From Macrostomum lignano (Eukaryota), in contig NIVC01004120.1 in the NCBI GenBank assembly GCA_002269645.1, positions 1 through 59,558 of the forward strand: a DNA stretch of 59,558 bases. The letters are read 5' to 3'. The notes beneath the pieces were generated by a model that was not told where the DNA came from, did no database searches, and saw only the letters and a program-made list of their open reading frames with translations. Shown piece after piece: positions 52,573 to 56,150 of this stretch; the stretch's first letter is position 1, and each line of letters starts with the position of its first letter. A program made the position numbers and the translations under genes.

Positions 52573-54498
52573 ATGGCGCGGCGCAATCAAACGGTGCACA
52601 GAGATATCAAAGAGACAGTTGGCACCTTTTCTATGGAAAAAGACTTTAACACCTTTGTTGATCATTTTGACCTGGTATGTAGGGAATACAACCTACAAAA
52701 TCCAGAAAAAGCGCAACTGTTGCCACCACTCCTCCAAGGCACTGCACGAGAGATTTATGGTAAACTAGACGCGGCAACACAGCAAAACTACCCAGCATTA
52801 ATCATTCAACTGCGCGCACATTTCAACCGCTGTGGCACAAACAGATCAGTGCTACTGCACAAGTTGCATAACAGAAGGATGCAGCCAACCGAATCCTTCC
52901 TGACCTTTGTGGACGACATCCGTCAGATAATTAAGGCACTGCATCAGCCAACACTGCCAGCTGCAGACCAACCACCTCTGGGTGCGGCAGAATTAGCCGC
53001 TAGAGAGCGACAGCGATTGATGGATCGCGAACAAAATCTGATTCTGCACGTAATAAACAATGCACAGCCGTCACTCCGAGATAGACTTCTACGCGAAAAC
53101 ATTGAAACCGAGGAAGACCTTTTACGGTGCGGAATGCAGTGGGAAGCAAGCGCTTCACTAATGACAACCGGCAACACAGAAGTGCAGAAACTGACACAGC
53201 AACTAAACAAATTGATGCAACATCAAACAGCCGTTATCGCCGAACAAAAAAGACGAAATGAACGAGCCCAAGCCAGATGCTATTACTGCGGACGAGAAGG
53301 ACACTACCAAATACATTGTCCTCATCGGTCAACAAGAAATGACATGCAGCGACAGCCATTCAACAGAAGGAAGCCGCAAAAACCATGGCAACAACATCAA
53401 AATTGGCAGCAGCAAAACACGAAACGCTTCGGAAACAATGGCTACAGACCGCGAAACACCAGATACATGCCCAAGCAACCAACGCAAGCGATGCAACGAT
53501 ATGCAAACGCCATCACGTACACACCGGAAAGCGAACAGCAAGAGCAGCAAGTCTTCACAATAGACGACTTAGAAATGGACTTCACTATCAATGAAATCGA
53601 CTGGCTCGATGCGGAGAGCAGCGAAAAGACAAAAAACATCAGCATGGTCGAAATGAAAGAAACTAACATTGACAGCGAAGAAGAAAAGTCAGAAGTGAGC
53701 ACAGAAAAAACATTGCCAAGCGACATCAGTGAAAGAAAAGAAGAAACAAACAAAGGCAACGACAAAGAACTGGCAACGAAGGATGACAACGAAAGAAGCA
53801 ACGACGGAAATACAGAGATGGAAGAAGAACAGCAAGAAGAAAGCAGCGATCACGATTATGAGATGCAGAATGACGCTGATGACAACCGAGCCGCCGACAA
53901 AGAACATGAAGACGGAAGGCACAAAGGAATGGAAGAAAGAAATCTAAGCTCCGACAGCGATCAATGCTACGAGATCCGATATAAACGAAATGGTGAAGCC
54001 TACATTCAAACGGTCGACTACAAGGCCGAAGTGAGGTACCGCAGACAATGGAGTGACACAACTACAACATCGGAAGAAAGCAAGGAAGAAAATGATGAAG
54101 ACGACAAGCAGCGGAACGAATCGGATGCCTTGCGCTCGGAAACGCCAATGGAACAAGAGGAAGAATACGATGCGGACGTAGAAGATAACGAATGGCAGCC
54201 GCAGCCAATGCCAGCAAAGACAACGGCAACGTTCAGAAAATGGCGATTCTGGATATTCTGGATCATCATAATACTACTGACGGCAGTAGTCACCAAAGCA
54301 ACAGCAATGGAGAAACCAATGATATGTCCAACGGATGCGCATATCCAACCGATGATCTACAAGATACCAACCGACATCAAATGCAGCTACTTCAAGACAA
54401 ACCAGGCGAAGCCAAAAAGATCACAATCGATCTCTACAAAGCCAACATCAAGAAGCATCGACAACTTGGAATCGTGTGCTTCAGAGACAAGCACCTAG
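52573..54498 (+). CDS. gag: Gag (capsid-like + CCHC knuckle) continuing in frame through an acidic linker into the Env signal peptide and N-terminus
   Basis: DFNTFVDHFDLVC...LLPPLLQGTAREIY...ESFLTFVDDIRQI; CYYCGREGHYQIHC at 53278-53319; WRFWIFWIIIILLTAVVTKATA at 54241-54306. Confidence 0.88.
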   Translation: MARRNQTVHRDIKETVGTFSMEKDFNTFVDHFDLVCREYNLQNPEKAQLLPPLLQGTAREIYGKLDAATQQNYPALIIQLRAHFNRCGTNRSVLLHKLHNRRMQPTESFLTFVDDIRQIIKALHQPTLPAADQPPLGAAELAARERQRLMDREQNLILHVINNAQPSLRDRLLRENIETEEDLLRCGMQWEASASLMTTGNTEVQKLTQQLNKLMQHQTAVIAEQKRRNERAQARCYYCGREGHYQIHCPHRSTRNDMQRQPFNRRKPQKPWQQHQNWQQQNTKRFGNNGYRPRNTRYMPKQPTQAMQRYANAITYTPESEQQEQQVFTIDDLEMDFTINEIDWLDAESSEKTKNISMVEMKETNIDSEEEKSEVSTEKTLPSDISERKEETNKGNDKELATKDDNERSNDGNTEMEEEQQEESSDHDYEMQNDADDNRAADKEHEDGRHKGMEERNLSSDSDQCYEIRYKRNGEAYIQTVDYKAEVRYRRQWSDTTTTSEESKEENDEDDKQRNESDALRSETPMEQEEEYDADVEDNEWQPQPMPAKTTATFRKWRFWIFWIIIILLTAVVTKATAMEKPMICPTDAHIQPMIYKIPTDIKCSYFKTNQAKPKRSQSISTKPTSRSIDNLESCASETST

Positions 54499-56150
54499 TC
54501 GAAAAAATATGGCGAGGACAATGGAACAGAATCCGATTCCGACAGCATGAGCTACATGTGTCGCACGCTGACTGCCTACGATGGAACCAGACATTGTTCT
54601 CCAAAGATGGTGTACTAGAACCTGATGAAAAGGTCGGCAACGCACAACTCTTCCGAACAAAGAATGTGGCAAACGGTCGATATGTCCACTATAATGAAAG
54701 ATGGCCTGACTACACGGCACGCAACAGCTACCTAATCAGGAATGTTCCGTTCTACTACAATCCGTACGAGAAAATGGAATCACTGCAACTGCAACTAAGT
54801 GAATGCCGATACAGCGAAGGATGGTGCCCAACGCCGATATTGCGAAATGCAGAACTCTACAGCCTACCGCTGAGTCCAACGTATCATCCAGACTATCGAT
54901 GGCAGATAGTGCACAGAGCCGATCCACACTACGAAGAGCCATCAAAGTCACGACAATATTTCTTCGCTTGGAAGGTTGAGACGGAAATCGACTGTCAACT
55001 ACAAAAGTATCACACAGTGGAAGGAGGCCTACTGTCAAACACGTTTTTGGCAAAGTCAGGAGACTTGGCACTGACGTTTCAAAAGAAACCAGTCGAGCAA
55101 AAACTGAAATGCAAGGATACAGACAAGACACTATTTATCTCGGAACAAGAGATACCAGTCTACGTAAAAGAAGACGACAAACAAACCTTTCTGGTGATCA
55201 TCAACGGAACGTATCAACAGCAGGAACAACAGAACAGACGACGACGAGACATCGAACGTCCCAAACTGGTGTCAAACCGGCTGTTGTCAGCAAAGATAAC
55301 GGCTTTGGATCACAATCTACACAACCAGTTAAACCACTTGCATCGAACACTGGTTCAGCTAACTTGCAAAATGCACGCAATCAACTTAAATTATGCCAGA
55401 CAAAACTACTATGTCAACCCTACGATGACTTTTCGTAAAATCACCGGAATGACGAACGTTTTGGCAGTTCCAATATACGAGCATCTGTTGATATACAAGT
55501 GCACGCCGATACAGCACTTAACATCTTGCCGTCGAACACGTCAACAACCTGCTACGACAAGCCAAGGATTGAAGCGTTCTACGATGGAAAACGAATTCAA
55601 GGATTCTTGGACACGGTACACAACATCATCGTTGGCACCGCAATACCGAGACCTTGCACCACGGCAGCAAACTACTATCAACTGGACAATGCACTACACG
55701 TCATCAAAACAACTGGAACGACAGCAAACATCACAGAACCGGAAGTAATCGTCGACGAAAACTACGACATGGAGGATTTGAAAATCCGATTCAACAGAAC
55801 AAAGTATAGGCCATTCGCCGATATCCAACTTGACGAGATAACACCAGGATGGACGATCAACGACTTCTTGCAAGCGTTCATCACCCAACGCAAGATGATT
55901 CACCAGCTGTTCACAAGAAAGGACAAAGGAACCGGGACAGGAAGATTTCCCGTCCTTGTTTCAATGGACAGCGCCATCAAATCATTTTGGACAAACAGCT
56001 TCTGAAAGCTGCTCAATGGAAGAGGAAGTCTCTATCAAGGATTCATCTTCTACGGTGCTTGCATTGTGTGGATTGTCACGGCAATCTTCATCATTTCGTC
56101 AATCGTACGGTGCTTCAGTCAACTTGTCCAAGAGCTAAGAAGACAGTGAA
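54241..56150 (+). pseudogene. env: Env-like type I membrane glycoprotein (gB/chuvirus-like class III fusogen), broken by 1-nt indels and one TGA
   Basis: Signal peptide, Cys-rich ectodomain with NxS/T sequons, furin RRRR at 55236-55247, helix-C-NPT-C-CY.KP-GFLD-PC pattern, TM GFIFYGACIVWIVTAIFIISSIV (~56040-56110). Shifts near 54416, 55517, 56140; TGA at 56003-56005. Confidence 0.78.

Follow-up and report, generated by a model that had tools for sequence, protein, structure and literature searches.

A broken envelope gene with a predicted gB-like fold in a Ty3/gypsy gag-env-pol element of Macrostomum lignano

Main finding

The window, which is the whole 59,558-nucleotide stretch of contig NIVC01004120.1 that was analysed, carries the broken env of a Ty3/gypsy element with the order gag, env, protease, reverse transcriptase (RT), RNase H and integrase. 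The env product is predicted to have a gB-like fold and is likely a class III membrane-fusion protein. We consider that it would be made by a polyprotein route, that the env is probably old and that assembly errors are the likely cause of the breaks in this copy. We give this reading as a whole a probability of about 85%.

Layout of the element

The features lie on the forward strand, in the following order.

50817..51875, +, 5' LTR (TG...CA), about 1,059 bp; matches both LTRs of sibling copies
51878..51889, +, primer-binding site (PBS), 2 nt 3' of the LTR; 1 match in the window versus 0 in 100 shuffles
52573..53560, +, gag, with a single CCHC zinc knuckle at 53278-53319; PF00098 at E 0.07
53560..54240, +, acidic linker of low complexity, joining gag to env in frame (ORF 52450-54498)
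54247..54306, +, first hydrophobic segment, predicted internal signal/anchor with an A-x-A end; hydropathy peak 2.2-2.5 in siblings, cleavage putative
54307-56107, +, env overall, between the first hydrophobic segment and the tail
54307..55235, +, env domains I-II (fusion domain, PH-like domain), from model strands and hairpin, PH-like and gB matches and the gB alignment
about 54507-54524 and 54681-54713, +, candidate fusion loops in env domains I-II
55236..55247, +, furin-type site RRRR
55287..55657, +, env domain III central helix and domain IV, from a 47-residue helix in the model, the gB alignment and PF24664
55658..56041, +, env domain V arm and membrane-proximal region, from the model, where pLDDT is low
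56042..56107, +, second hydrophobic segment, env transmembrane anchor, from hydropathy
56108..56384, +, predicted cytosolic tail with late-domain-like YPSI (56254) and PTAP (56275); runs into the protease in siblings
56385..56642, +, aspartic protease, PF13650 at E 3e-11
57349..57825, +, reverse transcriptase core, PF00078 at E 9e-28
58035..58407, +, RNase H, in pieces, PF17917 and PF17919
58712..59558, +, integrase, in pieces, PF17921 and PF00665; the contig end (59,558) cuts the element

The element has LTRs, a PBS and the protease-RT-RNase H-integrase order typical of Ty3/gypsy, together with PF17917, PF17919 and PF17921 and without Pao domains. The Pfam domain order thus bears out the proposal of a Gypsy carrier with env upstream of pol. 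The PBS 12-mer is common to five loci, including a sister family at 63% identity. The gag family PF00098, at E 0.07 in the window copy, reaches E 4e-6 in a sister family. No tRNA gene was found in the window. Tandem arrays dominate the repeat-finder output for the window.

The env product is predicted to be gB-like

All six env motifs named in the sequence-only reading were found in the window, spread over two frames.

55236-55247, +, RRRR, first motif frame
55287-55367, +, helix SAKITALDHNLHNQLNHLHRTLVQLTC, same frame as RRRR
55413-55424, +, VNPT, same frame as RRRR
55461-55502, +, LAVPIYEHLLIYKC, same frame as RRRR
55550-55570, +, CYDKPRI, next frame
55601-55630, +, GFLDTVHNII, same frame as CYDKPRI
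55649-55657, +, RPC, same frame as CYDKPRI

The parallel drawn there between these motifs and the gB series also holds, and profile-to-gB alignments pair the motifs in order. The gB counterparts are Q(I)QFAYD...AWC, INPT, GDVISVSQC, CYSRP, GQLGTDNEI and EVC/EMC. A 40-row env profile searched against the PDB gave 26 matches, all of them herpes gB (best E 6e-18, positions 6-459). With a control profile of 13 rows from the own genome, 20 of 23 PDB matches were gB (best E 2e-14). The env-gB motif correspondence is thus far beyond chance. All 12 ectodomain cysteines are invariant across 13 rows, at identities down to 23%, and eight of them align with gB cysteines. An R-x-K/R-R site lies in the ectodomain of seven of the nine frames scanned; the other two (L048 and L049) were mis-windowed.

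The structure model was built from the sibling L007, whose DNA is 98.5% identical to the window copy, and not from the window pieces. It is a monomer with a pLDDT of 74, a pTM of 0.48 and a weak C-terminal arm. In a Foldseek search of this model against the PDB all listed rows were gB (best E 3.7e-22), with TM-scores of only 0.40-0.47 and an rmsd of 12-17 Å. The top six rows of a VIA search over 48,161 chains were also gB (Z 11.1, rmsd 9.2, 426 aligned), and Chandipura G (Z 6.2) and Bourbon GP (Z 5.5) scored lower. BFVD matches of the model were Nyavirus G (1e-24), herpes gB and chu-like G.

The model has a 47-residue helix (324-370) with strands after it, which fits gB domain III followed by domain IV. 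PRV gB domain IV superposes on the model in VIA with Z 10.6 and an rmsd of 3.4 over 164 aligned residues. There is a long hairpin at 51-83, and PH domains occupy lower VIA rows over residues 29-307, so that the model contains an elongated beta fusion domain within PH-like domains. Two Trp/Tyr-bearing env loops align at the EBV gB loop sites, at positions that we take to be its fusion loops; the pLDDT there is 64-71.

The Pfam family PF24664 (Monjiviricetes_fusion) was detected in nine of the 13 own-genome env rows at E<=0.01 and in 16 of 49 outside relatives at E<=1e-5. In the unbroken sibling it scored 23.6 bits (E 1.5e-5), under the 27-bit cut-off that sister families pass with 29.0 and 39.6 bits. 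PF00606 (Glycoprotein_B) matched one of the 13 own-genome rows (E 0.006). The separate env frames of the window matched no fusogen family in Pfam, and phmmer of the sibling env against the PDB gave a single chance match (E 2). Single-sequence env signals are weak and below cut-off. The profile, model and fold searches together support the original class III, gB/chuvirus-type assignment.

Sibling copies and the breaks in the window copy

Sibling copies form one continuous frame of about 2,500 amino acids. Among 150 matches, 58 cover the env core at at least 93% identity, and ten of these 58 lie in frames of at least 2,370 codons. These counts overstate the number of insertions because some siblings share flanks (L073 and L075). 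The siblings are recently inserted: their LTR pairs are 99.7-100% identical in six of six pairs, two of which are only partly in view, and 4-bp target duplications occur at three distinct sites. The env is under purifying selection, with a dN/dS of 0.04-0.07 in two pairwise comparisons. The ratio is 0.31-0.35 in the linker versus 0.03-0.07 in gag and env. Against the 63% family dS is saturated, so no env ratio is given. Several young env families, at 23-94% identity, are present in the genome. Contigs of four presumed-RNA runs cover 29-30 of 30 bins; the leader-to-env joint is absent among the 12 listed, which weighs neither way.

The window env has frameshifts near 54420, 55520 and 56120 and an in-frame stop at 56003-56005. 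Each break is seen against 27-31 of 31 siblings. A truly decayed insertion, with real frameshift and stop mutations, would account for breaks that are private to this copy, and other copies carry private frameshifts too (16 places, in one or two copies each). The pattern of the changes nevertheless makes decay unlikely. There are 45 gap openings versus 69 substitutions over 7 kb, crowded at the contig end; against four siblings, 43 frameshifting places are private to the window copy, and the terminal 1.6 kb of the contig accounts for 34 of these. In contigs of four runs all listed depth at the stop position disagrees with the window sequence, and none of the listed pieces spans the breaks near 55520 or 56120 ungapped. 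This comparison consists of listed pieces, and contigs lose rare variants. The breaks in the window copy are therefore likely assembly errors at the contig end.

A probably old env

The sequence-only reading had suggested that such a carrier would represent a new independent capture. This is not supported; gB-type env on Ty3/gypsy and the GAG-ENV-POL order are already described in PMC13524379. We consider it unlikely that this lineage acquired its env independently from a nyami-, chu- or herpes-like virus. In the env tree eight own-genome envs make up a single clade that also takes in one metagenomic row and has a long stem (SH-aLRT 100). The top BFVD match is a nyamivirus G. PMC13524379 also describes GAG-ENV-POL elements as not monophyletic in POL, with the flatworm entry in RT clade S, apart from the nematode and bryozoan rows listed under clade R. 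These points favour capture. Against it, the closest identifiable relatives are retroelement envs (nematode gag-env-pol polyproteins and a Bel/Pao env), and identity to viral proteins is only 9-14%. No donor stands out, since the nyami, herpes, entomopox and chu-like scores lie within a few orders of magnitude.

The tree is from an unfinished quick search, with long branches, five of 56 rows omitted and no viral outgroup, and its rows were cut using a profile that includes own-genome sequences. A named viral outgroup is missing because word-seeded protein searches matched one and two proteins, none of them viral. The own-genome families form one deep clade in the env tree and have diverged to 23-63% identity, which implies great age for them, and env lies ahead of the protease in nine of 49 relatives scanned elsewhere. 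The env is likely an old possession of the lineage and not a fresh capture.

A proposed polyprotein route

We infer all steps of the following scheme after translation. A single mRNA would give a single polyprotein. Gag would be synthesised in the cytosol, and the first hydrophobic segment would target the gB-like ectodomain to the ER; there its N-terminus would be released by signal peptidase. The second segment would return the chain to the cytosol, so that protease, RT, RNase H and integrase would hang from the Env tail. The protease of the element would later sever Pol from this tail, and furin would prime the Env trimer. ESCRT, drawn in by the tail motifs, would serve budding, and fusion by the trimer would carry particles into other cells, probably germ-line or stem cells. 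In one sibling the tail has three late-domain classes inside 18 residues (0 of 5,000 shuffles). The cluster is strong in only this one of eight tails; among the others, two show it modestly (35 and 101 of 5,000 shuffles) and five do not exceed chance. No related report of signal-peptidase processing of gag-env-pol was found in the literature searched, which covers few subscription papers.

A wider proposal, that these families are infectious invertebrate retroviruses built in the style of a flavivirus polyprotein, is possible but tentative. Gag would be held by an internal signal, Pol would enter particles attached to the tail of a gB-type fusogen, itself self-sufficient, and not as Gag-Pol, and late domains would sit on the Env tail and not on Gag. 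Sister families would have a mucin-like shield between two furin-type sites. If this is true, the env is a gB able to fuse membranes with no help from gH/gL, and it occurs in an animal amenable to laboratory work.

Alternatively, the gB-like domain might be maintained for some purpose besides entry, for example to tether Gag and Pol to membranes during intracellular assembly, in an element that transposes inside its own cell. One frame ties Env 1:1:1 to Gag and Pol, and PMC13524379 calls the entry mechanism of gB-carrying elements unknown. However, at a dN/dS of 0.04-0.07 conservation extends over the full ectodomain and includes the furin-type site, the aromatic tips of loops and 12 cysteines, and the tail has late-domain-like motifs. 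A plain anchor would not need such conserved ectodomain features, and we regard this role as quite improbable.

The prediction of a class III fusogen leaves almost no probability for a class I (baculovirus F/errantivirus) or class II (phlebovirus-like) protein: F proteins also have a furin site with a long helix after it, but gB matches run across the ectodomain. Neither class I F-type nor class II Gn/Gc env was found among the listed PDB-profile, Foldseek, BFVD and VIA rows, so the outcome named beforehand as refuting the assignment is absent from the listed fold and profile matches. No class I or II Pfam family matched in the sibling, the outside relatives or the 13 own-genome rows.

Significance

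As a discovery the element adds little, since envelope type, carrier and gene order are all in print. The parts of PMC13524379 covered here report no functional test of a gB-type retroelement env. The window family has some value as material for such functional study. With several young families at 23-94% identity, the genome suits tests of partner-free minimal gB fusion, and the same families also suit tests of Gag-Env-Pol threading and cleavage.

Comparison with known systems

LTR elements of Macrostomum lignano are mostly Ty3/gypsy (PMC12801592). Chary and Hayashi (eLife 2026, PMC13524379) describe HSV/gB-type env on Ty3/gypsy elements across animals, argue for an ancient association and report GAG-ENV-POL elements from Nematoda, Bryozoa and Platyhelminthes. 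The gB-type env, the Gypsy carrier and the gene order are thus already known, and a claim of novelty fails. The window element shares with these errantiviruses the Ty3/gypsy pol, the gB-type env before pol, an ectodomain between two hydrophobic segments and many near-identical copies (PMC13524379).

The family of the window appears to be catalogued there as a published entry. Platyhelminthes_Rhabditophora_Mlig_errantivirus_2 has the identical 12-nt PBS 2 nt past the LTR, and its LTR, at about 864 bp, is as long as the LTR found in one sibling subfamily (an 870-bp match minus 6 flanking letters); the likeness rests on PBS and LTR length (PMC13524379). The window copy differs: it is broken, and its subfamily has an LTR that is longer, at about 1,059 bp. 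The main text of PMC13524379 contains none of the words "polyprotein", "fused" and "mucin", so it does not discuss single-frame processing, tail motifs or mucin-like inserts under these terms. Its figures (Fig. 5, cysteine classes) or the bioRxiv supplements may already treat the env structure.

A deposited Macrostomum lignano protein, ALD16272.1 (UniRef A0A0M4HFM6, "Retrovirus-related polyprotein"), matches the C-terminal 35% of the env at 97% identity. As in the window family, its env is continuous into protease, RT, RNase H and integrase. It differs in that the deposited sequence starts at an internal Met and lacks both gag and the N-terminal part of the env, and its env is unnamed.

Nematode ERVs with a continuous gag-env-pro-pol frame were reportedly described by Sacco et al. 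in 2022. They belong to another host phylum. Two named nematode polyproteins among the relatives of the window env (P0021 and P0046) also have env before the protease, with weak env similarity (E ~1e-6 and 5e-4) and separate branches in the env tree. PMC13524379 cites the non-canonical nematode ERVs of Sacco et al. for a flipped order of env and pol.

The Anakin elements carry a chuvirus glycoprotein, of the same class and also on an LTR element, but their carrier is Bel/Pao (Dezordi et al., 10.1101/2020.02.15.950899). The Bel/Pao polyprotein P0038 is a weak relative (E 1e-4) with env after integrase. Ascaris Tas is also said to be a Bel/Pao element with a gB-type env. Pao peptidase (PF05380) and DUF5641 are absent from five of five own-genome polyproteins, and env precedes the protease. 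Bel/Pao membership was rejected on the absence of Pao peptidase A17 and DUF5641 and on an env that does not follow integrase.

Herpes gB and the nyamivirus and chuvirus G proteins share with the window env the predicted class III fold and the order of the domain III/IV motifs. In gB the furin site is in the same place and the eight aligned cysteines are present. The parts identified in the element include no gH/gL-like partner. The window env differs from these viral proteins in its low identity (9-14%), shorter domains I-II, four extra cysteines and its place within a polyprotein.

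Predicted class III fold of the env

The env under study (window 54307-56107) contains all the motifs named in the sequence-only reading, in the stated order. The window copy itself is broken, and fold work was done on L007, a naturally unbroken sibling locus of the same genome with 98.5% DNA identity to it. As a single sequence, the L007 env gave PF24664 only, below cut-off, and no match in the PDB. A full-library search provided 50 env relatives, of which 49 were scanned for Pfam domains (P0050 was omitted for its size). PF24664 was present at E<=1e-5 in 16, with 12 of these above cut-off; herpes PF00606 (Glycoprotein_B) was found in one, P0042, at E 4e-7, below cut-off, with a protease motif downstream. 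A protease follows env in nine.

With a 40-row profile, herpes gB accounted for all 26 matches in the PDB (best E 6e-18). A control profile built from 13 env sequences of this genome's families gave gB in 20 of 23 (best 2e-14). The profile alignments pair the env motifs with the gB motifs to which they had been likened. The predicted model of the L007 env has a pLDDT of 74 and a pTM of 0.48. Foldseek matched it to gB (best 3.7e-22; TM 0.40-0.47, rmsd 12-17 Å), and in an exhaustive VIA search gB filled the top six rows (Z 11.1-7.0), followed by PH domains, Chandipura G (6.2) and Bourbon GP (5.5). The best BFVD matches, with identities of 9-14%, were Nyavirus G, rhabdo-like G, herpes gB, entomopox and chu-like proteins. 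A best match to a class I or class II fusogen had been named as the outcome that would count against the proposal; neither class is among the matches listed in the profile and fold searches. The profile, model and fold results support the gB/chuvirus-type class III fusogen proposed, and we regard the class III, gB-type assignment as secure. The nyami-, rhabdo-, herpes-, entomopox- and chu-like matches do not distinguish the viral donor.

Carrier element and surroundings

The element is laid out as follows.

50817-59,558 (contig end), +, LTR retroelement
50817-51875, 5' LTR
51878-51889, primer-binding site (PBS)

Downstream of the PBS lie a gag that carries a zinc knuckle, an acidic linker and the env region, and then protease, RT, RNase H and integrase. 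The Pfam matches (PF13650, PF00078, PF17917/17919, PF17921, PF00665), with Pao domains missing from all five sibling polyproteins, indicate a Ty3/gypsy carrier at the sequence level. The earlier placement of env upstream of pol on a Gypsy carrier agrees with this domain set and order. Within the LTR, about 125 bp (50891-51015) are missing or replaced in the LTRs of the closest sibling. A GT..AG joint (51352-51638, 285 bases skipped) occurs in contigs of two of four runs; it is weak, its short side being only 29 letters.

An uninterrupted caspase-like frame of 319 codons (49794-50753, -; PF00656, E 2e-32; His-Gly and ACR motifs) comes to within about 60 bp of the LTR. None of the 76 loci compared matches this flank; the frame is therefore not part of the element. 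GC-rich frames resembling a non-LTR retrotransposon, with endonuclease- and RT-like motifs recognized by eye, lie at 43464-46303 (+). Long tandem arrays of 23-bp and 17-bp units start at about 15.0 kb and 31.5 kb.

Breaks in the window copy

The window env has frameshifts near 54420, 55520 and 56120, each relative to 27-31 of 31 siblings, and an in-frame stop at 56003-56005. Its internal region has 43 private frameshifting places relative to four siblings, 34 of which lie within 1.6 kb of the contig end. Against the closest sibling, it shows 45 gap openings and 69 substitutions. The window's state at the stop and at two of the three breaks is absent among the pieces listed from contigs of four runs; 90 further pieces exist, and contigs lose rare variants. 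We consider assembly error a likelier source of the breaks than real decay of this copy.

Copies, age and selection

Of 91 candidates from a DNA search, 40 were scored, and all 40 (the window copy counted) span env at 91-100%. Two loci have common flanks, so matches exceed the true number of insertions. A protein search yielded 151 candidates, of which 150 were scored. The env core was covered at 93% or better in 58, ten of them within frames 2,370 codons or longer; gag, env and pol therefore share a single reading frame in siblings. Sibling LTR pairs are 99.7-100% identical in six of six cases (two pairs only partly in view), and 4-bp target duplications occur at three distinct sites. More distant families of this genome, with env identities of about 63% and 23-28%, keep the gene order. 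Two comparisons put env dN/dS at 0.04-0.07, similar to gag, protease and integrase; a third was saturated. A deposited Macrostomum lignano protein is 97% identical over part of env, which makes this flatworm, or a near relative of it, the likely host.

When L059 is compared with L058 and L045, dS is uneven along the frame. One pair gives 0.97 in the N-half of env vs 0.05 in the C-half, and the other gives 0.03 in RNase H. This patchiness suggests recombination among subfamilies, including exchange of the fusion-domain half of env.

Proposed working of the env

Two hydrophobic segments enclose the ectodomain, which is about 577 residues long and has a furin-type site, 12 invariant cysteines and 5-6 sequons. 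The tail (about 93 residues) is continuous with the protease. By analogy with viral polyproteins in general, the first hydrophobic segment would be an internal signal, cleaved after A-x-A, and the second a stop-transfer. Pol would be made attached to the tail of Env and then freed by the element's own protease. A furin cut would prime the trimer, which would fuse particles into new cells. Retention of env as an anchor without an entry role fits poorly with conservation of the whole ectodomain.

In the tail of the window family, YPx-type, PTAP and PPxY motifs fall inside a stretch of 18 residues, a clustering reached in 0 of 5,000 shuffles; only one of the eight tails compared shows clustering this strong. 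Late-domain-like motifs (YPx-type, PTAP/PSAP, PPxY) are located at window 56254-56286 and in the tails of L059, L046 and L051. In two sister families (env identity 24-28%), the place of the furin site is taken by a Thr/Pro-rich, mucin-like insert of about 200-270 residues, bordered at both ends by a basic R-x-x-R site.

Sister-family loci with the mucin-like insert
L046:3281-5653
L047:4716-7184
L049:2803-5343
L052:4765-7266

The main text of PMC13524379 never uses the word 'mucin'. Single-frame polyprotein processing, tail-driven budding, mucin-like inserts and fusion without gH/gL were not found in print, in a search that left most subscription papers outside its reach.

Origin of the env and comparison with known systems

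A quick tree was built from 51 of the 56 rows; its branches are long, and it has no viral outgroup. In it, the eight envs of this genome form a group (SH-aLRT 100) that also takes in one metagenomic row. This grouping shows what appears to be an old, single stock in the host lineage. It is compatible with separate capture, inheritance, or exchange among retroelements. The metagenomic row inside the own-genome clade is P0004; another metagenomic relative, P0012, has been assigned to a bacterial genome bin and is probably animal DNA within it.

A related env capture is reported for Ascaris Tas. The mosquito Bel/Pao case is that of Dezordi et al. (10.1101/2020.02.15.950899). The element system has already been described in print. 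In Chary and Hayashi (PMC13524379), gB-type env is reported on Ty3/gypsy elements across animals, and elements of Nematoda, Bryozoa and Platyhelminthes have gB-type env only, in the order GAG-ENV-POL. The independent capture suggested earlier for a Gypsy carrier with env before pol is not supported in view of these elements. The same paper favours an ancient association of env and carrier, and finds GAG-ENV-POL elements not to be monophyletic. In the published elements, the segments on either side of the ectodomain are a signal and a TM, or else a pair of TMs. The flatworm entry Mlig_errantivirus_2 (ENV_HSV, 16 copies) was compared with the window family by PBS and LTR length; the 12-nt PBS is identical, and the LTR length is that of one sibling subfamily.
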